Shown: positions 5,696 to 31,212 of the stretch, in pieces | How the letters are laid out: every line of letters begins with the position of its first letter | Numbering within the stretch: the stretch's first letter is position 1 | Source of the DNA: Deltaproteobacteria bacterium | Lineage (GTDB): Bacteria; Myxococcota; JACRCW01 | Assembly: GCA_016218805.1 (NCBI GenBank) | Contig: JACRCW010000103.1 | Span: 1 to 34,173 of the forward strand | Direction of reading: 5' to 3' | Length of the DNA stretch: 34,173 nt | Notes under the pieces: model-generated | The model's database searches: none | What the model was told of the DNA's origin: nothing | What the model saw: the letters and a program-made list of their open reading frames with translations, nothing else | Program-made: the position numbers and the translations under genes

Positions 5696-6157
5696 ATGGC
5701 TTCGCGAAAGAGCAAAGTGCCCCTGCGCGGCGTGGTGAAGGGCAAGAACCCGATCACGGTGGCGCCGTCCGACACGGAGTTGGGCCGGATGGGGCTGCTG
5801 CTTGAGCACATGTCCGACAAGGTCGACCTCGTCCACGAAGGCATGATGATCATCCGCGAGTCGCTGGAGCGGCGCATTGCGGAGAGCAAGGCGGACTTGT
5901 CAGCGCGCCTGGATACGGTGGAGTCCGTGATCCGCCACCTGTCCGCTGAAGTCCGCAAGAACAGCGACGACATCCGTAAGAACAGCGACGACATCCGTAA
6001 GAACAGCGACGACATCCGCAAGAGCAGCGAGGCGATTCGCCGCTTGGAGCAGGCGGTTGATGCGGTGCGCGGGGACCTGTCTGGCAAGGCGGATGCCGCG
6101 GACCTGCGCCGGCTGGAGGAGCGTGTCACCGCGCTGGAGCGGCGGCTGGCCTCCTGA
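5696..6157 (+). CDS. Hypothetical coiled-coil protein with heptad tandem repeats
   Basis: Clean ORF in the gap after dnaX with heptad periodicity and (I/V)RKNSDD repeats. Confidence 0.7.
   Translation: MASRKSKVPLRGVVKGKNPITVAPSDTELGRMGLLLEHMSDKVDLVHEGMMIIRESLERRIAESKADLSARLDTVESVIRHLSAEVRKNSDDIRKNSDDIRKNSDDIRKSSEAIRRLEQAVDAVRGDLSGKADAADLRRLEERVTALERRLAS
5952..6035 (+). repeat. 21-bp coding tandem repeat, 4 copies
   Basis: tccg(c/t)aagaacagcgacgaca at 5952, 5973 and 5994, plus a degenerate copy at 6015. Confidence 0.92.
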
Positions 6158-6181: not shown

Positions 6182-6583
6182 TCAGAGGCTCAGTGGGCCG
6201 TCCTCGTCAATCTTGGACATCAGCAGCTGGGTGACGTCCGTGCCGGGCTCACACATCAGCACCGCGCCGCGTTCCAATACCAACGTCACCTGCTTCTCCT
6301 TCATCAGCTTCTCCAGGTGCCCCTGCGCGCGCTTGAGCAGCGTGGCGCGCAGCGTGGCCTGCTGGTCCCGGATGCCCTGCAGCGCTTCCTTTTCGTGTGC
6401 CTCCACCTTGGCTTCCGCGGCCTTCTTCTCCGGGCCCTTGGCGGCGGCGGCTTTCTCCTGGAGCTTCTTGTGCTCCGCCTGCGCGGCCTTGAACTTCTGC
6501 TGCAGCGACCGCGCCGCTGACCGCCCCACCGTCGAGTCATCCAGCAGCCGCGGCATGTCCACCACGAGGTAAGCCATTGTCAT
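6182..6583 (-). CDS. OmpH/Skp-like chaperone with no apparent signal peptide
   Basis: N-terminal strand YLVVDMPRLLDDSTVGRSA, long charged helical hairpin, C-terminal KEKQVTLVLERGAVLM...DVTQLLMSKID. This is the Skp layout. Starts at ATG 6583 or 6577. Confidence 0.75.
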   Translation of the reverse strand: MTMAYLVVDMPRLLDDSTVGRSAARSLQQKFKAAQAEHKKLQEKAAAAKGPEKKAAEAKVEAHEKEALQGIRDQQATLRATLLKRAQGHLEKLMKEKQVTLVLERGAVLMCEPGTDVTQLLMSKIDEDGPLSL

Positions 6584-6658
6584 CACGGTCCTCCGGGGCA
6601 ACTTTTCCGGACGAATTGCGATAAGCTCACTCGTCCTTCTGTCTGCGAGGAGTGCACC

Positions 6659-7813
6659 GTGTCCATCTCCAACGTCAACCGCGGTACCGGCTTGAACACC
6701 CCAAGCGTCGGCGGCAGCGGCCCGGTCACGGGCACCACCACCCCGGCGCCGGCCACCACGCAGACCCCTGCCGGCACCGGTGACGGGTTCTCCGTCGGCG
6801 GGACCGCGCGCGCGCCCGCGCAGACGCCGGCGCAGAAGGAGTGGGGCAACTCGGTCAACCGCTACCAGGACCGGCTCAATGACGTCCTGGGCAACAACGC
6901 GCAGGCGTTTGCCAACGCGGCGGCGCACGGGACGCGTACCCCGGCGCAGGGCGGTGACATCACCGACGCGCAGCGGGACCAGCTGGTTGGGGCGACCAAG
7001 GACCTTATGATGGACATGCCGGTGTCCATGCTGGCGCCCAGCGCGCAGAAGTACCTGGCGGACAAGGGCCTGGACGTCCCCAACCTGGGCGACAAGAAGC
7101 TCAAGGACCTGGGCAAGGTGGGCGGGGACCTGGCCAAGGACCTGGCGGAGAAGTTCCGCAAGGACAGCCCGGGCGCGTTCTACGGGCTGGCCGCGGCGGG
7201 CGCCGTGGGCGCGGGCGCCTACGGCTACCTCAAGGGCAGCGAAGCGCTGGGCAAGCTGGGCATCAAGCCGGAATTCAAAACAAGGGTTTTCAGCGACCAC
7301 CTCACGCTGCGCGCGTCCGCCGCCTGGGAGGAGAAGTTCTCCAACTTCCGGGGCACCGTGGGCGCGGAGAGCCGGTTTGGCGTGGGCGGCGCCAACGTCA
7401 CAGTGGGCGCCGAGGTCACCGCCGGCGTGCGCAACGGGCTGGAGAGCTACAAGGTGAACGGCAGCGTCGCGCGGGACGGGACCACGCTGTCGGGTTCGGC
7501 CACGTTTGACGGCAACAGCGTGTTCCAGTCCGGCAACCTGTCGCTTTCCCGGGATACCCGCAATGTGGACTGGGCGCTGTCCGGCAACTTTGGACAACGC
7601 GGGCACCTGGACAGCCTGGGGGCTTCCGTCAGCGTCACGGAAGACAAGTTCCGCCTCTCCGCCGGCGCGGAGCATAACTTTGTCACCAACACCACCACGG
7701 GAAACCTGGGCGTCACCTACCGCCCGCGCGAGAACGTGGACCTGGGGCTGAGCGCGTTCCGCGACAGCACGGGCAACTCGGGCGTCGGGGTCGGTGTGAA
7801 GATCTCGTTCTGA
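6659..7813 (+). CDS. Hypothetical protein: Thr/Pro/Gly-rich N-terminus, helical middle, predicted C-terminal beta-barrel ending VGVGVKISF
   Basis: GAGGAG RBS before GTG and strong GC3 codon bias. The last ~180 aa are alternating amphipathic strands ending in Phe. Confidence 0.8.
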   Translation: MSISNVNRGTGLNTPSVGGSGPVTGTTTPAPATTQTPAGTGDGFSVGGTARAPAQTPAQKEWGNSVNRYQDRLNDVLGNNAQAFANAAAHGTRTPAQGGDITDAQRDQLVGATKDLMMDMPVSMLAPSAQKYLADKGLDVPNLGDKKLKDLGKVGGDLAKDLAEKFRKDSPGAFYGLAAAGAVGAGAYGYLKGSEALGKLGIKPEFKTRVFSDHLTLRASAAWEEKFSNFRGTVGAESRFGVGGANVTVGAEVTAGVRNGLESYKVNGSVARDGTTLSGSATFDGNSVFQSGNLSLSRDTRNVDWALSGNFGQRGHLDSLGASVSVTEDKFRLSAGAEHNFVTNTTTGNLGVTYRPRENVDLGLSAFRDSTGNSGVGVGVKISF

Positions 7814-18622: not shown

Positions 18623-18769
18623 CCTCCGGTTCGCGTCGCGCCGGTTTTGTCGCATGAATTGCGCGGCCCCGCCCGGGCGCGTGATGGATGCTGGCTTTCT
18701 TCTCAACGTTCCGTCGCGTCAAACGGGACTTGAGGGCGCAAACCCGAGCCCGCGGCGCGCCCCCTGACT

Positions 18770-18785
18770 TGGCACAACGTCTGCT
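18770..18785 (+). promoter_or_regulatory. Putative sigma54 (-24/-12) promoter of nosZ
   Basis: TGGCACAACGTCTGCT has exact GG-N10-GC spacing and lies 58 nt upstream of the nosZ ATG. Confidence 0.7.
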
Positions 18786-18843
18786 CACGCGGACCGCACC
18801 CCAGGGCGCGCCTGGCGCGACCCGACCATTTTGGAGGAGCACC

Positions 18844-21120
18844 ATGAAACTCGACGGTAGAACGCTGGTTGCAGCGGGCCTGGCCTTTGTGGCCGCCGAC
18901 GCGCTGGCAGCAGATACCCTGCAGGACGTCATCAAGCAGCGTGGCCTCACGCAGCAGGACGTGCTGTCCGCAGCCAAGACCTACGTGCCCACCGGAAAGC
19001 GGGATGAGTTCATCACGTTCAGTTCCGGCGGCCAGAGCGGCTCCGTCATTGTGTACGGCGTGCCCTCCATGCGCATCCTCAAGTACATTGCCGTGTTCAC
19101 GCCGGAACCCTGGCAGGGCTACGGCTTTGACGAAGAATCCAAGAAGGTCCTCAAGGACGGCAACATTGCCGGCCGTGAAATCACCTGGGGCGACACGCAC
19201 CACCCGGCCATCTCGGAGACCAACGGCGCCTACGACGGGCAGTTCCTGTTCATCAACGACAAGGCCAACCCGCGCATTGCCGTCATTGACCTGCGGGACT
19301 TTGAGACCAAGCAGATCATCACCAACCCCGTGTATAAGAACGAGCACGGCGGCGCGTTTGTCACGCCCAACACGGACTGGGTCATTGAGGCCGCGCAGTA
19401 CGCCGCTCCGCTGGAAAACGGATATTTCCCGCTGGAGCAGTTCAACGAGAAGTACCGCGGTGGCGTGACCTACTGGAAGTTTGACCGCGCCAAGGGCCGC
19501 ATTGTGGGTGACCAGTCCTTCTCATTTGAACTGCCGCCGTACAGCCAGGACCTCTCGGATGCCGGCAAGGGCCCGTCTGACGGGTGGGCGTTCACCAACA
19601 GCTTCTGCTCTGAGCGCTACGTGGGCGGCATTGAGCTGGGCCGCCCGCCGTTTGAGGCCGGCTGCTCCGCCAAGGATACCGACTTCCTCCACGTCATGAA
19701 CTACAAGAAGGCCGCCGAGCTGGTGAAGGCCGGCAAGGCCAAGAAGATCAACGGCCACAACGTGCTCCCCATGGACGTGGCGGTGAAGGAGGGCGTGCTG
19801 TTCCTGGTGCCGGAGCCCAAGAGCCCGCACGGTTGTGACGTCACCCCAGACGGCAAGTCCATCATTGTGTCCGGCAAGCTGGACACGCACACCATGGTGT
19901 ACTCGTTTGAGAAGATTCAGGCGGCCATCAAGGCGGGCAAGTTTGAGGGCAAGGACCCGTACGGGATTCCCATCATTTCCATGAAGGACGCGCTGGACAA
20001 GATGGTGGAGATTGGTCTGGGCCCGTTGCACACGCAGTTTGATTCCAAGCCCTGCACTGCGTACACGTCCGTCTACGTGGACAGCCAGGTGGCCAAGTGG
20101 GACTACTGCCAGGGCAAGGTGCTGGACAAGCTGAGCGTGCACTACAACATCGGGCACCTGATGACCATGGAAGGTGACTCGGTCAACCCCAAGGGTCACT
20201 ACCTGGTGGCGCTCAACAAGCTGGCCATTGACCGCTTCAACCCGGTGGGCCCGCTGCACCCGCAGAACCACCAGCTCATTGATATCAGCGGTGACAAGAT
20301 GCAGCTGCTGTATGACATGCCGCTCCCGCTGGGTGAGCCGCATTACGCGGTGGCCATCAAGGCGGACATGCTCAAGCCCGGCGTGCGGTACAAGGTGGGC
20401 ACCAACAGCCGCACGGATGAGAAACACCCCGGAATGGTGCGCGCGGGCGAGGAGAAGATTGTCCGGAGCCCGGGCAAGGTGGAGGTGTTTGGCACGCTGA
20501 TCCGGTCACACATCACGCCGGAGATCATTGAGGTGGAGAAGGGTGATGAGGTCACCATCAACCTGACCAACCTGGAGCGCGCCGAGGACGAAACGCACGG
20601 CTTCACCATCAGCGGCATGAACGTGCACGCGTCCGTGGAGCCGGGCAAGACGGTGAGCGTGAAGCTCAAGGCGGACCGCGAAGGCGTCTTCCCGTACTAC
20701 TGCACCGAGTTCTGCTCCGCGCTGCACCTGGAGATGCAGGGCTATTTCCTGGTCAAACCCAAGGGCTACAAGGCCGCCGCCGCTGCCGCGCAGAAGGCGG
20801 ACTACACCCAGGCGGATTACGAGAAGCAGAAGAAGACCTGCATTGACACGCAGGCTGTCATTGATTCCGTGGTTGGCTACATCACCAGCACCAACTTCAA
20901 GGACTTCCCCGAGGTGGTGGCCATGGTGGAGGACGCGACCGAGCAGTTGAAGGCCGCGGAGCCCTACAAGGCCAAGATGGAAGAGGCCGCCAAGAAGCAG
21001 GACTGGCAGAACGCCACGCTGTGGGCAGGCCAGTGGTGGCAGTACCAGGTCAAGGCGGCGGACATTGGGCTGCGCGCCAAGACCTATCTGGAGCAGAACG
21101 GCGCCAAGAAGGTGAAGTGA
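18844..21120 (+). CDS. nosZ: Nitrous oxide reductase, clade II (Sec-dependent)
   Basis: Sec signal; AAKTY.PTG..DE...FSSGGQSG; seven CuZ His (DTHHP, NEHGG, SPHG, PLHT, IGHL, EPHY); CuA site (THGF, CTEFCSALHLEM); ~120-aa helical C-terminal extension; GGAGGAG RBS. Confidence 0.98.
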   Translation: MKLDGRTLVAAGLAFVAADALAADTLQDVIKQRGLTQQDVLSAAKTYVPTGKRDEFITFSSGGQSGSVIVYGVPSMRILKYIAVFTPEPWQGYGFDEESKKVLKDGNIAGREITWGDTHHPAISETNGAYDGQFLFINDKANPRIAVIDLRDFETKQIITNPVYKNEHGGAFVTPNTDWVIEAAQYAAPLENGYFPLEQFNEKYRGGVTYWKFDRAKGRIVGDQSFSFELPPYSQDLSDAGKGPSDGWAFTNSFCSERYVGGIELGRPPFEAGCSAKDTDFLHVMNYKKAAELVKAGKAKKINGHNVLPMDVAVKEGVLFLVPEPKSPHGCDVTPDGKSIIVSGKLDTHTMVYSFEKIQAAIKAGKFEGKDPYGIPIISMKDALDKMVEIGLGPLHTQFDSKPCTAYTSVYVDSQVAKWDYCQGKVLDKLSVHYNIGHLMTMEGDSVNPKGHYLVALNKLAIDRFNPVGPLHPQNHQLIDISGDKMQLLYDMPLPLGEPHYAVAIKADMLKPGVRYKVGTNSRTDEKHPGMVRAGEEKIVRSPGKVEVFGTLIRSHITPEIIEVEKGDEVTINLTNLERAEDETHGFTISGMNVHASVEPGKTVSVKLKADREGVFPYYCTEFCSALHLEMQGYFLVKPKGYKAAAAAAQKADYTQADYEKQKKTCIDTQAVIDSVVGYITSTNFKDFPEVVAMVEDATEQLKAAEPYKAKMEEAAKKQDWQNATLWAGQWWQYQVKAADIGLRAKTYLEQNGAKKVK

Positions 21121-21166
21121 CCTGAAGGGATGGGTTGTGCAGTGGGCGCAGGACCGCCCGCTGCGC

Positions 21167-21219
21167 AACCGTCCTCCTGCGCCGGTGTCGTCGTGGCACC
21201 GGCGGAGGTGGACGGTTTT
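21167..21219 (+). terminator. Long hairpin with short U-tract downstream of nosZ (possible partial terminator or mRNA stabiliser)
   Basis: AACCGTCC..GCCGGTG / CACCGGC..GGACGGTT followed by TT. Confidence 0.45.
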
Positions 21220-21254
21220 CCCACGAAAACCCTGACCGGGACGGAGACGCTACA

Positions 21255-22022
21255 ATGCGGTGGAATTCATATGCAGTGATGGCGGCCAACCTGGCGCTGG
21301 CCCTGGCGTGCGGCACCCGGACGGATGCGTCAGCTCCGGGAACCGGCACGGCAACCTCCGCCTCCATGCCCGCGCTGGCGCCGCTGCCCGCGCCGGGCGC
21401 GCCGGCTTCCGCCACCGCGCCGCCATCCACCACGCTGGACCCCGTGCTGGTGGCGCAGGGCGCCAAGCTCTTCAATGACCGCACGTGCGTGGCCTGCCAC
21501 GGCAAGGACGCGCAGACGCCGCTGTTGCCCAACTATCCCAAGCTGGCCAGCCAGAACCAGGCGTACATTGAGCAGCAGATGCGCGACATCAAGTCCGGCA
21601 CGCGCGCCAACGGCCAGACCGCCGCCATGAAGGGAATCATGGTGATTGTGGAGGACCGGGAAATCCCGCCGCTGGCCGCCTGGCTGGCCGCGGGCGCGCC
21701 CGGGGCCGCCGCGGGCGCCGCCGGTGGCACGCCAACCCTCGTCATCCAGCCGCCGGACCCGGCGCTGGTGGAGCGGGGCGCCAAGCTGTTTGTGGACCGC
21801 ACGTGCCTGGCCTGCCACGGCAAGGACGCCAAGACGCCCATCATGCCCACCTATCCCAAGGTTGCCGGCCAGAACGCCGCGTATGCCGAGCAGCAGATGC
21901 GCGACATCAAGGCGGGCGTCCGGGCCAACGGTCAGACCGCCGCCATGAAGGGCATCATGCCGTTGGTGGATGACAAGGAAATCCCCGCGTTGGCCGCGTA
22001 CCTGTCCACGCTGCCGCGCTGA
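21255..22022 (+). CDS. Lipoprotein dihaem c-type cytochrome (NosC-like, internally duplicated)
   Basis: Lipobox-like LALALAC; CVACH and CLACH in two near-identical domains with PK(L/V)A.QN..Y...QM.D and distal Met candidates (AAM). Confidence 0.88.
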   Translation: MRWNSYAVMAANLALALACGTRTDASAPGTGTATSASMPALAPLPAPGAPASATAPPSTTLDPVLVAQGAKLFNDRTCVACHGKDAQTPLLPNYPKLASQNQAYIEQQMRDIKSGTRANGQTAAMKGIMVIVEDREIPPLAAWLAAGAPGAAAGAAGGTPTLVIQPPDPALVERGAKLFVDRTCLACHGKDAKTPIMPTYPKVAGQNAAYAEQQMRDIKAGVRANGQTAAMKGIMPLVDDKEIPALAAYLSTLPR

Positions 22023-22089
22023 AGCGTGAGCGGGCCCATCACCCCGCGCATGACTAAATAACAACAACGGCTCCAAGGAAGGAATACCG

Positions 22090-22806
22090 ATGAATCACAC
22101 CAAGCCGCTCCTGATTACCAGCCTCGTGGTTCTCTTTGCCGGCGGGTTGCTGGCGCAGAAGCCCCAGCCCAAGGCCGCCGGCATTGAGGCGCAAGGCTAC
22201 AAGTGGAACGCCGAATACGGCGAGAAGATGGAGGCCATGAAGAAGAAGGGTGACGTGACGGCGGGCGAAGAGGCCTACGAGACCTGCGCCGCCTGCCACC
22301 TCCCCAGTGGCGCCGGGCGCCCGGACGGGACGTTCCCGCAGCTTGCCGGGCAGCACCCCTCCGTGGTCATCAAACAGATTGCCGACATCCGCGCCGGCCT
22401 GCGCGACAACCCCATCATGTACCCGTTTGCGATTACGCTGACGGACCCGCAGCAGCTGGCCAACGTCTCCGCGTACATCCAGTCTCTCCCCATTCCGCAT
22501 GACAACGGCAAGGGCCCGGGCGCGGAGCTGGCCACCGGCAAGCGTCTGTATGAGCGTGACTGCCAGACCTGCCACGGCGCCAACGGCGAGGGCGACGCGA
22601 GCAAGTTCTACCCGGTGCTGGCCGGACAGCACTACAAGTACATGCTGCGCCAGGCCACGGACATCCGCGACGGACGGCGGCGCAACGCCAACCCGGACAT
22701 GGTGAAAGTGATCAAGCCGTATACCGACAAGGATATCGACGCGATTGTCGACTACATGTCGCGCCTGCAGATGCCCGACAAGAAAGCCGCTGCAAAGAAG
22801 AAGTAA
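22090..22806 (+). CDS. Dihaem cytochrome c4-type protein (NosC-like)
   Basis: Sec signal; CAACH and CQTCH; two P.LAGQH motifs. Confidence 0.92.
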   Translation: MNHTKPLLITSLVVLFAGGLLAQKPQPKAAGIEAQGYKWNAEYGEKMEAMKKKGDVTAGEEAYETCAACHLPSGAGRPDGTFPQLAGQHPSVVIKQIADIRAGLRDNPIMYPFAITLTDPQQLANVSAYIQSLPIPHDNGKGPGAELATGKRLYERDCQTCHGANGEGDASKFYPVLAGQHYKYMLRQATDIRDGRRRNANPDMVKVIKPYTDKDIDAIVDYMSRLQMPDKKAAAKKK

Positions 22807-22868
22807 CCGCGCGCCCCGGCACCGGGGCGCCCCCGGGCAGTTCCGACGTCGCGCCGGGGTCACGGGGG

Positions 22869-23867
22869 ATGGAGGAGCTGGACATGACACCCCGTTCGTC
22901 GCCCCTTGCCAGCGTTCTTGCCGTGGTGGCCGGGCTGGTCATGGCCACCGCCTATTTCACTCCTGTGTGGTGGGTGTCCCTCACCGCGCCCAACTACCCG
23001 GTGGACCGCTTCCCGGATGGGATCCGGATCCACTTTGGGTTTGAAGGCGTGAGCAACGGCTGCACCACGGCCGCCAAGACCAGCCGCGTGGCGCAGGAGA
23101 CGCAGCAGGAGGACCTGGGCTGGCGCTCTGACGAGGAGAAACCCGCGCCGGAGAAGAAATCCGCGGAATCCGGCGGCGCGCTGGACTGCGTCCATGAAAT
23201 GAACACCATCAACCATTACGTGGGAATGCGGCCCATTGGCGTGGGCGCGCCGGTGGAGCGCAACCTCAGTCGCTACATACTTGGGATGTTTGGTGTGATG
23301 ATCCTGGGGTTTGCACTGCGGAACCGGCGCGCGCGCGTGGTGACGCTGGGCGCCGGGTTTGGCGTGGTGGCGGCGTGGATGGTGGTGGACCAGTTTGTGC
23401 GCGGGCGGCTGGCGGCGGTGGTCACGGAGTACACGGAGGAAGCGGGCAAGTACTTCCGCGAGGCGGAGAAGATCACCGCGTGGGGTGAGACGCTGCACAC
23501 CGTCGCCGTGGCGGTGGTGCTGGTGCTGATTGCGCTGATGGCATTCATGGTGTTTGCCGCCTGGCGGTGGCACGGGTTCCAGCTGGCGCTGGGGATTGTT
23601 CCCGCGCTGCTGCCGCTGTTCTTTGTGGCGGCGTACGCGGCGTGGTTGTGGTTCTTTGGTCACACCATGCACCCGTGGGGCGCTTTCACGTTGAAACCGT
23701 TCATGCCCACGGTGTTTGGTGACGGGATGGTGGCGCAGTTCAGCACGCATTCCTACCCGCACTACGGGTTTGGGTTGCTGGCGCTGTCTTCCGTGCTGCT
23801 GCTGGTGGCGGTGGCGCGCCGCCGCCTGGAGCTGATGGATGAACCCGCCGCCCCGGTGGCCGGATAG
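22869..23867 (+). CDS. nosB: NosB-like membrane protein of clade II nos clusters
   Basis: WWVSL.APNYP..FPDG, EMNTINHYVGM, WLWFFGH.M, KPFMPTVFG.G.VAQF.THSYP..G. ATG 22884 is an alternative start. Confidence 0.85.
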   Translation: MEELDMTPRSSPLASVLAVVAGLVMATAYFTPVWWVSLTAPNYPVDRFPDGIRIHFGFEGVSNGCTTAAKTSRVAQETQQEDLGWRSDEEKPAPEKKSAESGGALDCVHEMNTINHYVGMRPIGVGAPVERNLSRYILGMFGVMILGFALRNRRARVVTLGAGFGVVAAWMVVDQFVRGRLAAVVTEYTEEAGKYFREAEKITAWGETLHTVAVAVVLVLIALMAFMVFAAWRWHGFQLALGIVPALLPLFFVAAYAAWLWFFGHTMHPWGAFTLKPFMPTVFGDGMVAQFSTHSYPHYGFGLLALSSVLLLVAVARRRLELMDEPAAPVAG

Positions 23868-23870
23868 CGC

Positions 23871-25193
23871 ATGCGGCAGGCGGCCTGGGCCCTGGGATTG
23901 CTGGTGTCAGCCTGGGCCGTGCTGGCGGACACGGAGAAGCATGATGACATGGCGCCCGCCGCCGCGGGCGCGTGGGGCGCATCCTGGGAGCCGTCCCAGC
24001 GGCCCGCGGGCCCGGCGGACCCGTCCCTGCCCTGGTTCCAGAAGCTGGTGGATGACGCGCCCGCGGGCAGCGTCCTCAAGCCGCCTCCCGGCCGCTACTC
24101 CGGACCCGTGCTCATGCAGAAGGTGCTCACCATTGAGGGCGCCGGCGTCACCATTGATGGCGGCGGCAAGGGCACCGTGTTTGTTGCGGACGTCAGCGGC
24201 GCCACCCTGCGCGGGCTCACGTTCACCGGGTCGGGTGATTCGCATTCCACCGACGACGCGTGCCTCAACCTGCGCGGGAACGGCAACACGCTGCAGGAAA
24301 ACGTGTTTGAGGATTGCCTGTTCGGGATTGACCTCAAACAGGCCAACCGCAACGCGGTGGTGGGCAACCGCATCCGCTCCAAACGCGTGCCGCTGGGCCT
24401 GCGCGGGGACGCCATCCGCCTGTGGTACAGCAAGGACAACCGCGTGGAGGGTAACGTCGTCACCGATTCGCGCGATGTGGTGGTGTGGTACTCCGACGGG
24501 AACATCATCAAGGGGAACACCGGGACCGGGAGCCGGTATTCGCTGCATTTCATGTTTGCGCAGCACAATGTGGTGGTGGACAACCGGTACGACAACAACT
24601 CCGTGGGAATCTACGTGATGTACACGCAGGGCGTGGAGATCCGGAACAACGTGATTTCACGGTCCGCTGGACCCACGGGGATGGGCATTGGCTTCAAGGA
24701 GGCCAGCAGCTCCGTGGTCAGCGGCAACACCCTCATCTACTGCGCCGTGGGTATCTCCTCGGACCTCTCTCCGGACGAGCCGGATACCACCATTGAGATC
24801 TCGGACAACCGCATTGCGTACAACGGCGTGGGCCTGTCCATTGTGGGCAACAAGACGGGCACGGTGATCATGCGCAACGTGTTTGAAGGCAACATTGACC
24901 AGGTGTCCCAGAGCGGCGGCGGCAGCGCCATGCACAACACGTGGAAGGGAAACTACTGGGATGATTACCAGGGGTTTGACCGGAACCGTGACGACGTGGG
25001 GGACACGCCCTATGAACTGTACGCGTACACGGACCGCATCTGGATGGAGATGCCGGTGGCGCGCTTCTTCAAGAACGCGCCATTGATGGAGGCCATTGAT
25101 TTCCTGGAGCGCCTGGCGCCGTTCTCCACGCCGGATCTGCTGGTGAAGGATGAACAGCCGCTGTTTGTCCGGCCCCACGGAGGTCACCCATGA
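23871..25193 (+). CDS. nosD: Nitrous oxide reductase maturation protein NosD
   Basis: Signal peptide, beta-helix (CASH) repeats, RGDAIRLWYS, RYSLHFMF, GNYWDDYQGFD...VGDTPY; H/M/M triad intact. Confidence 0.95.
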   Translation: MRQAAWALGLLVSAWAVLADTEKHDDMAPAAAGAWGASWEPSQRPAGPADPSLPWFQKLVDDAPAGSVLKPPPGRYSGPVLMQKVLTIEGAGVTIDGGGKGTVFVADVSGATLRGLTFTGSGDSHSTDDACLNLRGNGNTLQENVFEDCLFGIDLKQANRNAVVGNRIRSKRVPLGLRGDAIRLWYSKDNRVEGNVVTDSRDVVVWYSDGNIIKGNTGTGSRYSLHFMFAQHNVVVDNRYDNNSVGIYVMYTQGVEIRNNVISRSAGPTGMGIGFKEASSSVVSGNTLIYCAVGISSDLSPDEPDTTIEISDNRIAYNGVGLSIVGNKTGTVIMRNVFEGNIDQVSQSGGGSAMHNTWKGNYWDDYQGFDRNRDDVGDTPYELYAYTDRIWMEMPVARFFKNAPLMEAIDFLERLAPFSTPDLLVKDEQPLFVRPHGGHP

Positions 25194-26035
25194 GCGAGCC
25201 CGTCAACAACGGTGGCAAGCCGGCCCCCGCGCCAGGTGGCAAACGCCAGCAGGAGGAGCGCCGCAAGTTCCTGCGCGCGGCGGTGGTGGGAACGGGTGTC
25301 GTCGGGTTTTCGCTGGCCGGGTTCCTCCCCGTGCTGGAGGATGACCACGGCCGCCGGCTGCGCCCACCCGGCGCGCTGGATGAAAAGGACTTCCTGGCCG
25401 CGTGCATCAAGTGCGGCCAGTGCGTGCAGGTGTGCCCCGTGGAGGCGATCCACCCGGCGGACCTGTGGGACGGGTTTGGCGTGGGCGTCCCGTTCATCGA
25501 TCCGCGCAAGCAGGCGTGCGACTTTGCGTGCGACGTGGGGCAGTGCATCCTGGCGTGCCCGACGGGTGCGCTGGAATACCGAAAGCCCGCGTTCCTGGCT
25601 GTGCGCCCCGGCGCCCAACTGCCCGCGCCGCCGGTGCTGCTGGCCAAGGAGAATGACCCCAACCCCACGCTGCAATTCAAGGAGCGCATGGGCGTGGCGC
25701 GGCTGGACCGCCCGGATGCGTGCCTCTCCGTGCTTGGAAAGGGCGTGAAAGGCCCCGCGCGAGGTGAGAGCTTCCGCGGATTGAAGCGCTACACGGACGT
25801 GGACCGCTGGAACCCGGTGCGCGTGCGCGAACACCCGTACGACCTGGAACGCTGTGACCTGTGCGTGCGCGAGTGCCCGATCAAGGGCGCCATCAGCATC
25901 CAGGCGGACGATACCGGGCGCCTCACGCCCACGGTGCACGCGGAATGCGTGGGCTGCGGCGTGTGTCAGATGATGTGCCCGGTGGAGCCGGCAGCCATTG
26001 TGGTGGACGCGCGCGGAACGTGGGGAGGTGCGTGA
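25190..26035 (+). CDS. nosG: NapG/MauM-family periplasmic polyferredoxin
   Basis: Tat motif RRKFL, LRPPGA, CIKCGQCVQVCP, CDLCVRECP, CVGCGVCQMMCP. Confidence 0.9.
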   Translation: MSEPVNNGGKPAPAPGGKRQQEERRKFLRAAVVGTGVVGFSLAGFLPVLEDDHGRRLRPPGALDEKDFLAACIKCGQCVQVCPVEAIHPADLWDGFGVGVPFIDPRKQACDFACDVGQCILACPTGALEYRKPAFLAVRPGAQLPAPPVLLAKENDPNPTLQFKERMGVARLDRPDACLSVLGKGVKGPARGESFRGLKRYTDVDRWNPVRVREHPYDLERCDLCVRECPIKGAISIQADDTGRLTPTVHAECVGCGVCQMMCPVEPAAIVVDARGTWGGA

Positions 26036-27012
26036 TGGGACGCCGCCTCGAAGACTTCCGCCGGATGCTGGGAGCCGAGCCGCGCCGCCCCGAACCGGGG
26101 GACTACTCACCCGGCGCGCGGCAGATTCATGACACCAAGAGGCTGAAGAAGTCCGACTTTGACGCGCTCAAGCAGGTGGCGGTGAAACACCGCGCCAACA
26201 AGCGCTGGCGCCGCCGCCGGTGGACCACGCTCATCGTCGTCAACCTGCTGTTCGTGCTGTCATACTGGCTGGATGTGCAGCTGGTGGAGGGATCGCTGTC
26301 GGGGTCGCGGTTCCTTGGTTTCCACATGATTGATGTGAATGCCGCACTTCAGCTGATGCTGGCGCACAAGCACCTCATCACCAACCTGCTCATCGGCACG
26401 GCCACCATTGCGCTGGTGTGGGGCGTGCTGGGCGGGCGGTCGTTCTGCTCGTGGGTGTGCCCGTATCACCTGCTGGCGGAATGGGCGGAAAAGCTCCACC
26501 TGCTGCTCGCGGCGAAGAAGATTGTGAAAGACCACCCGTTGCACCGCGGGTTGCGCGTGGTGCTGTGGGCGCTGTTTGCCGTGCTGGCGTACGGCACCGG
26601 GTACACCGTGTATGAAACCATCTCCCCGACGGGAATCCTCTCCCGCGCGATGATCTACGGCCCGGGCGTGGTGCTGTTGTGGATCTTTGCGCTGCTGGCG
26701 TTTGAAGTGCTGTACAGCCGCCGCGCGTGGTGCCGGTACATGTGTCCGGTGGGACTGACCTATGGCGTGGTGGGCACGGTTTCACCCGTCAAGGTCAGCT
26801 ATGACCTGTCCAAGTGCTTTCATGAACAGGATTGCCGCAAGGTCTGCCTGGTCCCGCACGTGCTGGACACCGTCGTGAAGGGCCGCGCGGTCACGGAGAT
26901 CGTTGACATTGGGAATGACTGCACGCGCTGCGGACTGTGCGTGGACACCTGTCCATCCGGAGCACTCCACTTCACCATCACCGGTGTCACCAAGCGCCGA
27001 ACAGGGGAATGA
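26035..27012 (+). CDS. nosH: NapH/MauN-family membrane ferredoxin (quinol dehydrogenase subunit)
   Basis: TM helices, GGRSFCSWVCP, WCRYMCPVG, CTRCGLCVDTC; TGATG coupling to nosG. Confidence 0.92.
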   Translation: MGRRLEDFRRMLGAEPRRPEPGDYSPGARQIHDTKRLKKSDFDALKQVAVKHRANKRWRRRRWTTLIVVNLLFVLSYWLDVQLVEGSLSGSRFLGFHMIDVNAALQLMLAHKHLITNLLIGTATIALVWGVLGGRSFCSWVCPYHLLAEWAEKLHLLLAAKKIVKDHPLHRGLRVVLWALFAVLAYGTGYTVYETISPTGILSRAMIYGPGVVLLWIFALLAFEVLYSRRAWCRYMCPVGLTYGVVGTVSPVKVSYDLSKCFHEQDCRKVCLVPHVLDTVVKGRAVTEIVDIGNDCTRCGLCVDTCPSGALHFTITGVTKRRTGE

Positions 27013-27016
27013 CGCG

Positions 27017-27907
27017 ATGATACGGCTCAGCAGGCTCACCAAGTCGTTCAAGCGGCTGCGCGCCGTGGACGCGCTGGACCTTGGGATTGAGAAGGGTGAG
27101 CGCATCGCCCTGGTGGGCTCCAACGGCGCCGGCAAGACCACCATGATCCGCTGCATTCTCGGCGAATACACATTTGAAGGCGATGTCGCGGTGGGCGGCA
27201 AGCATCCGCGGCGCGCCCGCAGCGAGGTGCTCGGGCGAATAGGTTTTGTCCCCCAGCTGCCACCGCCCCTCAAGATGCCGGTGAGCGAATTGCTGCGTTT
27301 CTCCGCCGCCGTTTCCGGACGCAAGGTGTCCGATATCTCGGAGATTGCCACGCGGCTGGGCCTGGATGTCACCACGTTTGCACGGCAGCCGTTCTTCAAG
27401 CTGTCCGGCGGGCAGAAACAGAAACTGCTGATTTCCATTGCGCTGGGACGGAACGCGGAGGTCCTCATCATGGATGAACCCGCTGCCAACCTGGACCCGG
27501 AAGCCCGCCACGCGTTCTTCACCCTGCTGGCTGAACGCGTCACCACCGCCACCATGCTCATCTCCAGCCACCGCCTGGACGAAGTGGCCGCGCTGGTGAA
27601 CCGCGTGATTGAGATGGACCGCGGGAAGATTGTGCTGGATGACAAAGTGACCGATTCACCGCTTACCGGCCTGCTGGCGTGCACCGTCACCCTGCGCCGC
27701 CCGGACCTCGCCATCGGGAAGGCGCTCACTGAGTGGAAGTTCACCCCGTCCGCCGATGGTCTGGTGTGGACGGGGAGTGTTGCCGGAGCGGACCGGTTGC
27801 GCTTCACGGGTCTGCTGTCACGGTATGTGGGCCTGCTCACCCGCGTGGCGCTGGATGAGAAACACAGCGGCGCCGGCAATGGCGTGGCGGAAGGTGCGGC
27901 GCCGTGA
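27017..27907 (+). CDS. nosF: ABC ATPase of the NosDFY complex
   Basis: GSNGAGKTT, LSGGQKQK, IMDEP, SSH; position within the nos cluster. Confidence 0.92.
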   Translation: MIRLSRLTKSFKRLRAVDALDLGIEKGERIALVGSNGAGKTTMIRCILGEYTFEGDVAVGGKHPRRARSEVLGRIGFVPQLPPPLKMPVSELLRFSAAVSGRKVSDISEIATRLGLDVTTFARQPFFKLSGGQKQKLLISIALGRNAEVLIMDEPAANLDPEARHAFFTLLAERVTTATMLISSHRLDEVAALVNRVIEMDRGKIVLDDKVTDSPLTGLLACTVTLRRPDLAIGKALTEWKFTPSADGLVWTGSVAGADRLRFTGLLSRYVGLLTRVALDEKHSGAGNGVAEGAAP

Positions 27908-28416
27908 GCCCGCACACTGCCTCCACCCCGCACCCGGCCATGCCCCGCATGGCCGACCTCCCCCACAAGGGGGGAGGCTACGCAGGGGCGGCAGGGGCGG
28001 TGATGCTCGCACTCAGCCTTGCGGTGGCGGCGGGCTGCAACACCGGGGACAAAGATGGGCCCGTTGACGTCATCTTTGACCGGGATGCGTGCGCCCGCTG
28101 CAGCATGATCATCTCTGACCGCCACTTCGTCGCCGAAGTGCGCGGCGGTCCCCGCCGGGAAGTCGCGAAATTCGACGACATCGGCTGCGCGATTACGTGG
28201 TTGGACGCGCAACCGTTTGCGAGCGACCCCACCACGCGGATTTGGGTCGCCAGGCTGGACGATGGCTCCTGGGTCGACGCGCGCGCCTCCCGCTTCGCCG
28301 GCGGCAAGACCTCCCCCATGGGGTACGGGTTCGCCGCGGTCATTGACACGGAAGGCGTGGATTTCCAGGCGGTCCAGCAGCACGTGCGGGCCATGGCCCA
28401 GCGGAGGAACAAGTGA
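27904..28416 (+). CDS. nosL: NosL-family copper chaperone lipoprotein
   Basis: Lipobox AAGC; D.CARCSMIISD, FDDIGCA, SPMGYGF. The true start may be a downstream ATG. Confidence 0.88.
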   Translation: MSPHTASTPHPAMPRMADLPHKGGGYAGAAGAVMLALSLAVAAGCNTGDKDGPVDVIFDRDACARCSMIISDRHFVAEVRGGPRREVAKFDDIGCAITWLDAQPFASDPTTRIWVARLDDGSWVDARASRFAGGKTSPMGYGFAAVIDTEGVDFQAVQQHVRAMAQRRNK

Positions 28417-29240
28417 GTCACCTCGTCCTGACAGCCCGGCTTGACGTGCAGGAATCCGTCCGCGCCCGCTGGTTCCTCGTCTACGCGTTGATCTTCGGCG
28501 GCATCGTTGCCGCGTTCTTCGCATTTGGCGTCACCGAATCCCGCGTGCTGGGCTTCATGGGCCTGTCCCGCCTGCTGGTCACGTACATCCAGCTGGTCAT
28601 GGCCATCATGCCCATCTTCATCCTGCTCACCACCGTGCGCTCCGTTGCCGGTGACCGCGAAGCGGGCGTGTTTGAATACCTCCTATCCCTCCCGGTGGGC
28701 CTGGGCTCCTGGTACTGGGGCCGCATTTTCGGGCGTTTCCTCGTCGTGTTCCTGCCCGTGTTCCTGGCCATGCTGGGCGCCGCGGGCTGGGCCGTTTACC
28801 GCGAAATAGAAGTCCCCTGGAAGATGTTCGGCGTCTACACCGGCCTGATGGCCGCCATGTCCTGGTGCTTCTTGGGCCTGGGCATGTGGATCTCCACGCT
28901 GGCGCGCTCCACCGACGTGGCGCAGGGCGCCGCGTTCATGATGTGGCTGGTGTTCCTGTTGTTCCTGGACCTCATTCTCCTGGGCGTGCTCATCCAGGGG
29001 CGCGTGCCCGCCAACGCGGTCATTGCCATTGCGCTGGTGAACCCGCTGCAGGTGTTCCGCACCGGCGCACTGATGCTGTTTGATCCGCAGCTCGTCGTGT
29101 TCGGACCAGCCGCGTACGTGATTCACGACTATTTTGGCGGGCCCAACTTCATTGTGTACGCCATGGCCTATCCCACGCTGGTGGGCACGCTGGCCGCCGG
29201 CCTGGGCTACCTCACGTTCCGGCGGGGCGACCTCGTGTGA
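28413..29240 (+). CDS. nosY: ABC permease of the NosDFY complex
   Basis: Multiple TM helices, DREAGVFEYLLSLP, NPLQVFR. Confidence 0.92.
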   Translation: MSHLVLTARLDVQESVRARWFLVYALIFGGIVAAFFAFGVTESRVLGFMGLSRLLVTYIQLVMAIMPIFILLTTVRSVAGDREAGVFEYLLSLPVGLGSWYWGRIFGRFLVVFLPVFLAMLGAAGWAVYREIEVPWKMFGVYTGLMAAMSWCFLGLGMWISTLARSTDVAQGAAFMMWLVFLLFLDLILLGVLIQGRVPANAVIAIALVNPLQVFRTGALMLFDPQLVVFGPAAYVIHDYFGGPNFIVYAMAYPTLVGTLAAGLGYLTFRRGDLV

Positions 29241-30493
29241 CGCCCGCGTTCGCGCTCCTGGCCGCGGCGGCGCTGCCTCCGCTGCAGCCGCTCATTGATG
29301 CGGCTCCCCCGGGCTCCGTGCTGGTCCCGCCGCCGGGACGGTACGCCGGGCCCGTGGTCATTACGCGGGCCCTCACCCTGGACGGCGCGGGCCGCGTCAC
29401 GGTGGACGGGCAGGGCACCGGCAGCGTCATCACCATCCGCGCGGAAGGCGTCACGCTCAGGCGGTTGCACATCACCGGATCCGGCACCAGCCATGACCAC
29501 ATGGACGGCGCCATCACCGTGGAAGCGGACCACGTGGAAATCCGGCACAATGACCTGGACAACACGCTCTTTGGCGTGCAGGTGAACGCGGCGCACGGCG
29601 TGCTGGTGTGCGGGAACACCATCCGTTCCACGCGTGACGAGCCGGGCCTGCGCGGCGACGGCGTGCGCATCTGGAACGGGAACCACAACACGGTCAGCGG
29701 CAATGACATCGTGGAGGCGCGGGACGTGACGTTTGCCAACGCGCGGGACAACCTGCTGGCGGGCAACCGCGTGGCGCATGGGCGGTACGGGTTGCAGATG
29801 GTGTTCGCGCCGCGCAACCGCGTGGAGGATAACCAGTTTGAGAGCAACCTCACCGGCATCGCCGTGCTGTACTCGGATGACGTCGTGATCCGGCGCAACC
29901 GCGTGGTGGATTCGCAGGGCGTGTCCGGGGTGGGCGTGGTGTTCAAGGAGTCCAGCCAGGGCGTGGTGGAGGACAACGCGTTTGTGCGCTGCTCCGTCGG
30001 CGCGCGGACCAACTCGCCCACGCACCCGCTGAACGTGGTGTATTTCCGGAGAAACCTGTTTGCGCACAACACGGCGGGCATGGACTTCTACGGCGAGAAC
30101 GGTGGCCACGTGATTGAACACAACCGGTTTGATCACAACCTGGTGCAGGTCACGGTCAGCGCGCCCATGAGCGCGCGCGGCAACGGCTGGCTGGGCAATG
30201 AGTGGGATGATTACCAGGGTTTTGATCGCGACGGTGACGGCGTGGGGGACCAGCCGTATGAACGCTTTGCGTTTGCCGACCGCATCTGGCTGGAGACGCC
30301 GTCCGCCACGTTTTTCCGCAATTCCCCCGTGCTGGAACTGCTGGACTTCCTGGAACGGCTGGCGCCGTTCTCAAATCCGGAGCTGGTGCTGCGTGATCCC
30401 CGGCCGGCCATGACGGCCGCAGGCACGGGCCCCGCGGGACCCCCGCGCGAACGGCCCCGGTTCATTCCCTCCTGTCCTGGAGATGTGCCGTGA
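29237..30493 (+). CDS. Second NosD-family protein (paralog lacking the H/M/M triad)
   Basis: Beta-helix repeats, LRGDGVRIWN, GNEWDDYQGFDRDGDGVGDQPYE, DFLERLAPFS shared with nosD. Confidence 0.88.
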   Translation: MTPAFALLAAAALPPLQPLIDAAPPGSVLVPPPGRYAGPVVITRALTLDGAGRVTVDGQGTGSVITIRAEGVTLRRLHITGSGTSHDHMDGAITVEADHVEIRHNDLDNTLFGVQVNAAHGVLVCGNTIRSTRDEPGLRGDGVRIWNGNHNTVSGNDIVEARDVTFANARDNLLAGNRVAHGRYGLQMVFAPRNRVEDNQFESNLTGIAVLYSDDVVIRRNRVVDSQGVSGVGVVFKESSQGVVEDNAFVRCSVGARTNSPTHPLNVVYFRRNLFAHNTAGMDFYGENGGHVIEHNRFDHNLVQVTVSAPMSARGNGWLGNEWDDYQGFDRDGDGVGDQPYERFAFADRIWLETPSATFFRNSPVLELLDFLERLAPFSNPELVLRDPRPAMTAAGTGPAGPPRERPRFIPSCPGDVP

Positions 30494-31212
30494 TGTGTCG
30501 TCGTCAGCTGGGTGCGTGGTGGGTGGGCGTGCTGGTGTTGTTGCCGTCCGGTGCGTCCGCGGGGCAGTTGGAGAACGGCAAGGACGTGTACGGCCCGTGT
30601 GCCGCGTGCCACGGCGCCAACGGTGAAGGCGGCAAAGGCGGCGAATACCCGCGCCTGGCGGGCCAGCCCCCGGTGTACCTGGTGGGGCAGTTGAAGTTGT
30701 ACCAGGAACGCAAGCGCTACAACGTGGCCATGTTCCCGTACACGGAGCCGCGTGAACTCTCCGAAGCGGACATGCAGGACGTGGCGGCGTACCTCACGCA
30801 GATCACGCTCCCGGCGAAAACACCCGTTTTCAAGGACACGGACAGCGCGCTGGACCGCCTGCTGGCCATGGAGCGCGTGCTGGTGGTGCCGCGCGTGGCC
30901 GGTGACGTGGAGAACGGGAAGGCGACCTTCAAGCGCAGCTGCGTGTCCTGCCACGGGCCGGAGGGACGGGGGAAGAAGAACAACCCCGTGCTCCTTGGGC
31001 AGTACCCGGACTACCTGCAGCGGCAGGTGGACGCCTTCCGCAAGGGTGACCGGCCGCATGACAAGAAGACCGCCGGGGAGGGCGTGTTCTTCAAGCTGGA
31101 GCAGAAGGACGTGGTGGACATCTTCGCGTACCTGACGGCCATCCAGGACAAGGACCCGGAGGTTCCGGCCGCAGGGTCGTCGACGGCGGGGAGCGGCGCA
31201 GCGGCGGAATAG
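30490..31212 (+). CDS. Dihaem cytochrome c4-type protein
   Basis: Signal peptide; CAACH and CVSCH; PRLAGQ and PVLLGQ motifs. Confidence 0.9.
   Translation: MMCRRQLGAWWVGVLVLLPSGASAGQLENGKDVYGPCAACHGANGEGGKGGEYPRLAGQPPVYLVGQLKLYQERKRYNVAMFPYTEPRELSEADMQDVAAYLTQITLPAKTPVFKDTDSALDRLLAMERVLVVPRVAGDVENGKATFKRSCVSCHGPEGRGKKNNPVLLGQYPDYLQRQVDAFRKGDRPHDKKTAGEGVFFKLEQKDVVDIFAYLTAIQDKDPEVPAAGSSTAGSGAAAE

Follow-up and report, generated by a model that had tools for sequence, protein, structure and literature searches.

A Skp/OmpH homolog without a signal peptide is encoded head-to-head with a usually signal-less, predicted membrane beta-barrel protein in Myxococcota

Results

The 34,173-nucleotide contig JACRCW010000103.1 (assembly GCA_016218805.1), analysed over its full length and called the window below, is contig C68 of the Myxococcota genome bin G000 (6.4 Mb, 92% complete, about 68% G+C). 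The bin comes from groundwater; its run listing holds three DNA runs of one groundwater study and no RNA runs. Two genes stand head-to-head in the window. On the minus strand lies a gene for a protein of the OmpH/Skp family of 133 amino acids (6182..6583, stop codon counted); we call it cSkp, meaning the signal-less form of the Skp/OmpH homolog. On the plus strand lies a gene with a GTG start for a signal-less protein of 384 amino acids (6659..7813, stop codon counted), called here the barrel protein after its predicted fold. The initial annotation had described the two genes as divergent across only 75 bp, and we confirmed this spacer at 6584..6658. Read from the sequence, it contains both ribosome-binding sites: GGAGG at 6590-6594, 6 nt upstream of the cSkp ATG (6581-6583), and GAGGAG, 6 nt upstream of the barrel GTG at 6659. 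A consensus scan found no sigma-70-like promoter or terminator within it.

cSkp matches the Pfam OmpH family PF03938 with E 1.3e-11 and 45.3 bits (cut-off 32.4). Its residues 6-124 align to positions 3-140 of the 141 positions of the profile. Since residue 6 already matches profile position 3, there is no room for a signal peptide. The protein starts five residues ahead of the first strand in the window and one to eight residues ahead of it in the relatives' loci, where the start region has the consensus LVVDL..LLD.S..G. An in-frame stop lies about 3-21 codons upstream of the start in the orthologs (only 8 codons in many loci), and cSkp lacks a signal in every locus examined. The canonical OmpH genes of four genomes (G227, G247, G112 and G010) do have clear signal peptides. 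Thus, the earlier claim that the Skp-like protein begins directly at its first strand holds for the window and for its relatives, and the lack of a signal peptide places cSkp in the cytoplasm. A profile built from 18 cSkp orthologs matches the E. coli Skp structures 1u2m and 1sg2 end to end with E 2e-6, and also 9yjt and 9nhx (E 2e-6 to 5e-6 for all four structures). The length of cSkp varies from 108 to 143 amino acids, and the forms of family f11 have a 24-residue gap in the arm region. At E<=0.001, the search of the window's genome, a bin 92% complete, returned cSkp as the sole OmpH match and revealed no canonical OmpH/Skp with a signal. On contig C77 of the same bin, the genes after bamA encode an M10 peptidase and an unassigned secreted protein. 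A word-index search for relatives of cSkp returned only the window's own protein.

The barrel protein opens with a disordered N-terminus rich in S, T, P and G (residues 1-55, 6659..6823, pLDDT 26-33) that has a semi-conserved short start, M-x-x-I/V-x-N/G/R. S, T, P, G, N, Q and A make up 80% of the first 50 residues. The first 30 residues contain no acidic residue, in the window as in most members of the family. Over the first 60 residues the highest 10-residue Kyte-Doolittle (KD) mean is 0.34, and there is no hydrophobic stretch. These values bear out the description of this N-terminus as disordered and signal-less. It is followed by a conserved helical domain (residues 57-170, 6827..7168). 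The model places helices at 57-77, 81-89, 103-118, 127-135 and 153-169, and A81, A85, L109, P121, L125 and G137 are invariant in the family alignment. Next comes a conserved Gly/Ala-rich helix, PGAFYGLAAAGAVGAGAYGYLKG (residues 171-193, 7169..7237, pLDDT 79-89 in the domain model). Thus, the helical middle and the Gly/Ala-rich segment noticed in the initial annotation both appear in the models and are both conserved. The Gly/Ala helix is the most hydrophobic 19-residue window of the whole protein. Its KD mean of 1.12 is low, as it falls below 1.6, the usual threshold for a membrane helix. We found no family for the barrel protein in Pfam, NCBIfam, PADLOC or PHROGs; of the latter two collections, PADLOC gave no match to cSkp either, and PHROGs gave a 15-bit match for cSkp only. 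An Atlas search returned no named family for the barrel protein and only barrel-type structural rows with a TM score of 0.39-0.50.

The absence of signals from both proteins could also be an annotation artefact, in which an unrecognised upstream start would give one or both of them a normal signal peptide. What speaks for this is the reading frame of cSkp in the window, which stays open far upstream and forms a 497-aa open reading frame (ORF) in a genome of 68% G+C. However, the 60 codons upstream of cSkp encode no hydrophobic stretch, and they overlap the barrel gene, which runs on the opposite strand. For the barrel gene, the stretch from the in-frame stop (6518-6520) to the GTG at 6659 is free of ATG, GTG and TTG codons, and most barrel orthologs have an upstream stop 1-6 codons before the start. 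Counted over both genes, the stops of orthologs are placed 1-8 codons upstream, and no upstream start with a credible signal was found for either. This explanation is largely refuted and can hardly be correct.

The C-terminal part of the barrel protein (residues 205-384, 7271..7810) is predicted to be a porin-type membrane beta-sheet or barrel. A domain model of residues 165-384, built with a 47-sequence alignment, reached a mean pLDDT of 94.1. The initial annotation had counted roughly 14 amphipathic strands. DSSP assigns 13 in both models, at residues 205-382; the amphipathic character stood, with alternating faces that have a mean KD of +1.63 on the hydrophobic side and -1.56 on the opposite, polar side. 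In a wide structural search, the best 50 rows were all membrane barrels. The porin of Rhodopseudomonas blastica (VIA Z 13.6) and VDAC (VIA Z 13.5) were among the matches, and further structural neighbours were OprB, the PapC usher, Tom40, LptD and TonB-dependent transporters. The model superposed on the PapC usher with an rmsd of 3.0 A over 176 aligned residues, on OprB with 3.6 A over 165 and on Tom40 with 3.6 A over 164. For OmpG the values were 8.8 A over 172 residues, for Omp33 9.2 A over 168, for KdgM 9.4 A over 146, and for FadL and its P. aeruginosa homologue 8.9 and 9.1 A over 178 residues each. In general, the fit was 3.0-4.2 A on parts of 16-24-strand barrels and 8.8-9.4 A on 12-14-strand barrels. 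The length of the beta region varies widely across the family (340-583 aa in the first matches), as does the number of strands. The 13 strands, together with the good fit to wide barrels and the poor fit to those of 12-14 strands, argue against a small closed monomer. Given the variable length of the beta region as well, an oligomeric wide barrel is possible on the basis of these models.

The barrel protein ends in VGVGVKISF (7784..7810), for which the family consensus is VGVGVTWRF. Two glycines, G377 and G379, are invariant, and the last F almost is; in the consensus, position -6 holds G, position -3 an aromatic or hydrophobic residue and position -1 F. The beta-signal recognised by the BAM machinery is a C-terminal motif with an aromatic last residue, and an end of the VGVGVTWRF type resembles the ends of enterobacterial porins. 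Thus, the BAM-like end that had been read from the window alone is conserved in the family. Taken together, the models and the alignment support a membrane beta-barrel-type fold with a BAM-like end. The family profile also gave a weak match in the PDB (E 5e-5) to the IgA1 protease passenger of H. influenzae (3h09, residues 701-869); the match to this beta-helical passenger is probably compositional. Intimin and invasin barrels were found among the structural matches only at an rmsd of 9-14 A.

We then assessed how widely the two genes occur and whether they occur together. The barrel family is rare: a search of 1.84 billion proteins gave 189 representatives at E<=0.001, of which 105 reached E<=1e-30, and a word-indexed search gave 17 matches. 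In a sample of 401 Myxococcota genomes, which includes one unpublished genome (G195), at least 60 hold the barrel gene. The barrel tallies are lower bounds, because this search used a stricter first look. The scores of the cSkp profile over the same genomes are bimodal: 49 genomes reach at least 96 bits (the first tier) and five lie at 66-80 bits (the second tier), while canonical Skp proteins score no more than 61. Of the 49 first-tier genomes, 48 also hold the barrel gene. In the remaining one (G028, 93% complete) no barrel was found, even by a more permissive search. Of the 48 genomes with both genes, 43 carry them side by side in divergent orientation, and this layout spans at least five families; cSkp adjoins the barrel gene in 26 of 29 fetched loci of relatives. 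Thus, the linkage of homologs suggested as a check in the initial annotation was found. In the f11 loci (for example L026, 1421-1459) the divergent start codons lie only about 37 bp apart; two ordinary promoters do not fit into such a spacer and must therefore sit within the neighbouring genes. The inheritance of the module looks vertical and follows taxonomy in the family tree. The genes are non-adjacent in five genomes: they are unlinked in G010, G020 and G036 of family f12, 12 kb apart in G319 and 4.2 kb apart in G138. At two of the f12 loci (L071 of G010 and L083 of G036) the unlinked cSkp adjoins a gene that we read as tsaE from its translation alone.

Twelve genomes have a barrel gene and no first-tier cSkp. 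Three of them (G145, G160 and G322) hold only distant paralogs, two (G021 and G029) have divergent f2 forms, four (G043, G049, G307 and G381) are fragmentary or cut at a contig end, and in one (G384) the barrel match is weak and partial (E 1.5e-19). The other two, G112 (98% complete) and G390, seem to be real exceptions. In G112, a second signal-less protein of 312 amino acids is encoded directly after the barrel homolog (L039:9977-10915, plus strand); it has an S/T/P-rich start, ends in GNVGVEVKF and belongs to no Pfam family, and this genome lacks cSkp. In the genus of Pyxidicoccus and 9-Mb Myxococcus-sized genomes the module was not found, and only distant paralogs were present. Two such paralogs, signal-less and 357-358 amino acids long, lie in Corallococcus coralloides and Pyxidicoccus (L048:8590-9663 and L047:8640-9710). 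They are COCOR_02300 (WP_014395130.1) and WP_267863279.1, both annotated as hypothetical; they keep the N-terminal motif and the barrel end and have neither the Gly/Ala helix nor cSkp. The literature search found no paper for the locus tag COCOR_02300. Two variants in genus g142 (L049:6997-9651 and L050:8768-10312) have the N-terminal domain, the Gly/Ala helix and the beta region, carry an extra C-terminal helical domain and lack the aromatic barrel end.

These exceptions could mean that cSkp is a cytoplasmic chaperone or regulator with a general or a different task, that its adjacency to the barrel gene reflects shared regulation only and that the barrel protein is handled without it. Signal-less Skp-like proteins without a detectable barrel homolog occur in G028 (first tier) and in G005 and G111 (second tier), so the pairing is not exclusive. 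The f12 genes are unlinked, with cSkp beside the putative tsaE, and the barrel gene occurs without cSkp in G112, in G390 and among the divergent f2 forms. All of this also weighs against a dedicated role of cSkp in handling the barrel protein, which is the reading that we prefer. So do two further points: the isoelectric points of cSkp span 4.5-9.4, so that its surface charge is not uniform and follows no consistent trend, and the co-occurrence counts overstate their statistical weight, because related genomes do not count as independent samples. The known clients of the Skp fold, however, are unfolded barrel proteins. A partner of this kind is present in nearly all first-tier genomes and lies head-to-head with cSkp in most of them. 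We therefore consider a general or unrelated task of cSkp improbable.

In one subclade, f18, the barrel orthologs carry a signal-like segment. These proteins open with 60-97 extra residues (MKNDGIGRRPK..., MVESVNKPNVS...), after which a signal-peptide-like segment follows, such as KFRAAITGMLLALALTFTSVAPSHA or KLKKGVVAALLGFTLIGAAVAPAHA, each continued by QD. At four loci (L037, L044, L045 and L046) there is a segment of the n/h/c type that ends in AHA before Q or AFA before G. The G+C content at third codon positions (GC3) is 0.91-0.95 in the extension and 0.53-0.66 upstream of the ATG (L037 and L044), which indicates that the extra residues are coding; at L046 there is no alternative start between the ATG and the hydrophobic segment. 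We compared 74 N-terminally complete representatives of the family. Twelve passed the hydrophobicity threshold, one of these was not signal-like, and two more lay just under it. Thus, a signal-like segment is present in about 13 of the 74; it lies at residues 17-116 and is internal in most cases. About 61 have none. Signal-less and signal-bearing forms share the N-terminal motif M-x-x-I/V-x-polar followed by a basic residue, and this conservation hints that the motif may have a role beyond Sec targeting. In f18 the signal-less cSkp adjoins the barrel gene at a distance of 266-483 bp, and all nine f18 genomes with a barrel gene have a first-tier cSkp. In a tree rooted with distant paralogs, f18 branches within a group of otherwise signal-less lineages; support for this group is weak, and the placement is consistent with f18 having gained its signal.

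In f18 the barrel protein appears to have gained a signal-like segment, and its cSkp stayed signal-less. This suggests export of the client from the cytoplasm, with cSkp acting at an earlier stage. We take it to mean that in every lineage the mature barrel protein probably functions beyond the cytoplasm and that the task of cSkp precedes translocation by any route. The Sec-like signal also points to the producer's own envelope as the destination, so the initial idea of delivery into prey membranes is not supported. The Gly/Ala helix was tried as a general export signal of the signal-anchor type and rejected, first on account of its low hydrophobicity, and also since the signal-bearing subclade retains the helix in the mature protein and since the Corallococcus and Pyxidicoccus paralogs do without it.

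The initial annotation had likened the N-terminus of the barrel protein to those of type III-type export substrates. As a marker of type III-type export gates we used FHIPEP. It is present in 59 of the 60 barrel genomes and in 348 of the 401 genomes overall; as it is nearly universal, its co-occurrence with the module is uninformative. In the loci read, no type III genes lie beside the module. The genome of the window has one strong FHIPEP match, which sits in a flagellar cluster; another match, on contig C86, is weak (21.7 bits). The flagellar cluster (G000:C158:40000-59999, L062) is complete, with FlgK/L, FlgF/G, FlhA/B, FliPQR, FliMN and MotAB, all named by reading ORF translations and not by a family scan. 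Myxococcota are better known for gliding. Thus, a type III-type route for the module is not supported by these findings. SecB (PF02556) was not found in any of the five module genomes searched for it. In a crude screen of the window's genome, 60 of 3722 coding-like ORFs have a barrel-type end, and 35 of these have an N-terminal hydrophobic segment. Among the remainder, the barrel protein of the window is the only clear barrel-like, signal-less case. The module therefore has the appearance of a dedicated system and not of one element in a general pathway.

If the protein were nevertheless an exported weapon, cSkp would keep it unfolded, a contact-dependent apparatus (type III-like or Tad/Kil) would inject it, and the BAM or SAM machinery of the target would insert it as a lethal pore. 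Many Myxococcota are predatory. The signal-less, disordered N-terminus without acidic residues in most members, the BAM-type C-terminal motif and the near-constant presence of FHIPEP in barrel genomes would suit this explanation. So would the needleless type III-like apparatus of M. xanthus, whose effectors are reportedly still to be found (PMC12075869). However, FHIPEP does not discriminate between genomes with and without the module, the module is not placed beside type III genes in the loci read, and the strong FHIPEP match of the window's genome is flagellar. No immunity gene is evident, the module was not found in the genus with Pyxidicoccus and Myxococcus-sized genomes save for distant paralogs, and f18 sends the same protein by a Sec-like signal to its own periplasm. 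We consider the weapon quite improbable.

The module in the window is flanked by dnaX, a gene for a coiled-coil protein, a Kef-type cation/proton antiporter gene and the gene for MetRS, and no secretion genes were found among these flanking genes. The coiled-coil protein (153 aa, window 5696-6157, plus strand) adjoins cSkp and contains three tandem RKNSDDI heptads; its family matches are weak and of the coiled-coil kind. Farther off, at window 18685-31212, lies a nitrous oxide reductase (nos) cluster that includes a NosZ-like propeller and cupredoxin, c-type cytochromes, two NosD copies, a ferredoxin and an ABC-2 permease. This setting bears on one more explanation, in which the barrel protein is a self-directed lysis or toxin factor and cSkp sequesters it until release, as in a chaperone-controlled toxin-antitoxin system. 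A small, neutralising partner encoded beside a potential pore former would fit it, and there is a precedent in a SecB-like chaperone recruited into a toxin-antitoxin system. Against it, the genes are divergent and form no operon, housekeeping genes lie on both flanks, PADLOC and PHROGs give no support, inheritance appears vertical, and the signal-bearing subclade implies regular export. A pore with its antidote is thus very improbable.

Discussion

Outer-membrane barrels normally reach the periplasm by way of Sec, using a cleavable signal, and encounter Skp only in that compartment. The module described here inverts both rules: the Skp homolog is cytoplasmic by its lack of a signal, the barrel protein is usually signal-less, and the two form a conserved, vertically inherited pair. 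The conserved pair points to an undescribed handling of a barrel protein before it leaves the cytoplasm. The initial annotation knew of no system of this form. Our literature search, in which most subscription journals were not covered, likewise turned up no report of a paired Skp and barrel protein that both lack a signal.

We tentatively propose, at somewhat less than an even chance, that cSkp works in the cytoplasm as a holdase of the SecB kind, with a barrel protein bound for the envelope as its client. The two genes would act as a conserved myxobacterial module in which cSkp stays in the cytoplasm, binds the aggregation-prone beta-domain of its neighbour and keeps it unfolded, as SecB does with outer-membrane precursors in Proteobacteria. 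cSkp would then hand its client to an export step at the inner membrane. In f18 this step would most likely be Sec, because a cleavable-looking signal follows the 60-97-aa extension. After export, the C-terminal beta-signal would direct the client to the producer's own BAM, which would build the client into the outer membrane as a wide, porin-like sheet or barrel. This barrel is possibly oligomeric, and the helical domain and the Gly/Ala helix may lie on the periplasmic or the pore side. Of the initial proposal that a cytoplasmic Skp holds a barrel protein for non-Sec export, the holdase is thus the best-supported part. The non-Sec route probably does not extend to f18, which bears a Sec-like signal.

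It is less probable, and in our view unlikely, that most members cross without any Sec signal and that cSkp is both their holdase and their targeting factor. The 13-strand sheets might then pair to a barrel of about 26 strands in the envelope of the producer or of a target. Such a route would be a bacterial counterpart of the path that mitochondrial barrels take from the cytosol to the organelle.

One point against the proposed holdase is the crossing of the inner membrane. We know of no inner-membrane route for a signal-less protein of 384 residues except type III-type gates, and the module is unlinked to one. M. xanthus has a needleless type III-like apparatus with a sorting platform and an inner-membrane export gate, described as lacking a secretin and needle and with effectors still to be found (PMC12075869). 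By analogy, a gate of this type could deliver a protein into the periplasm. It is possible, although we would not count on it, that the signal-less majority uses a type III-type export gate in this way. We are more doubtful about chaperone-assisted Sec export without a signal. That the majority leaves by some other means is a little easier to accept, and this too is held below an even chance.

The module can be compared with several known systems. By sequence, cSkp is homologous along the full mature chain to the periplasmic Skp (OmpH, HlpA) of E. coli and other Gram-negative species, and its presumed client, an unfolded barrel protein, is of the same kind. It differs from periplasmic Skp in that it has no signal peptide, is shorter and is encoded beside one client rather than near bamA. 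The likeness to SecB is functional and lies in the proposed role of holding outer-membrane precursors unfolded before translocation. cSkp has a different fold and belongs to a different family, as it matches OmpH and not SecB; SecB serves many clients, all of them with signal peptides. A small cytoplasmic chaperone encoded beside a substrate with a disordered, non-hydrophobic N-terminus also resembles a type III substrate with its chaperone. However, cSkp has the Skp fold and not that of a class I-III type III chaperone, it has no linkage to type III genes, and its client is a barrel protein with a BAM-type end that in one subclade has a Sec-like signal instead.

The precursors of the mitochondrial barrels VDAC and Tom40 are signal-less as well; cytosolic chaperones keep them soluble, and they are assembled through a C-terminal beta-signal. 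Both are among the best structural matches (Z 12.7-13.5), and the strand count of 13 in the model is odd. The module is, however, a bacterial system without sequence relationship to these proteins, and bacterial porins fit the model equally well. With the classical porins and wide barrels (R. blastica porin, OprB and PapC, Z 12.7-13.6) the barrel protein shares an amphipathic antiparallel sheet and an aromatic C-terminal end. Unlike them, the protein of the window lacks a signal, adds an N-terminal helical domain and a Gly/Ala helix, and is curved like a barrel of 16-24 strands with only 13 of its own. An autotransporter (type V) consists of a signal peptide, a passenger and a linker helix inside a 12-strand barrel, and the barrel protein of the window lacks the signal peptide.

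If the proposed handling is correct, the module would be a tractable case of how a barrel protein is managed before export in genomes such as the five in which SecB was sought and not found. It would also be a natural experiment, since one subclade added a Sec-like signal and the others did not. The signal-less majority would possibly lead to a new export signal or route, and the barrel proteins would be a candidate class of substrates for those myxobacterial type III-like machines that are of unknown cargo.

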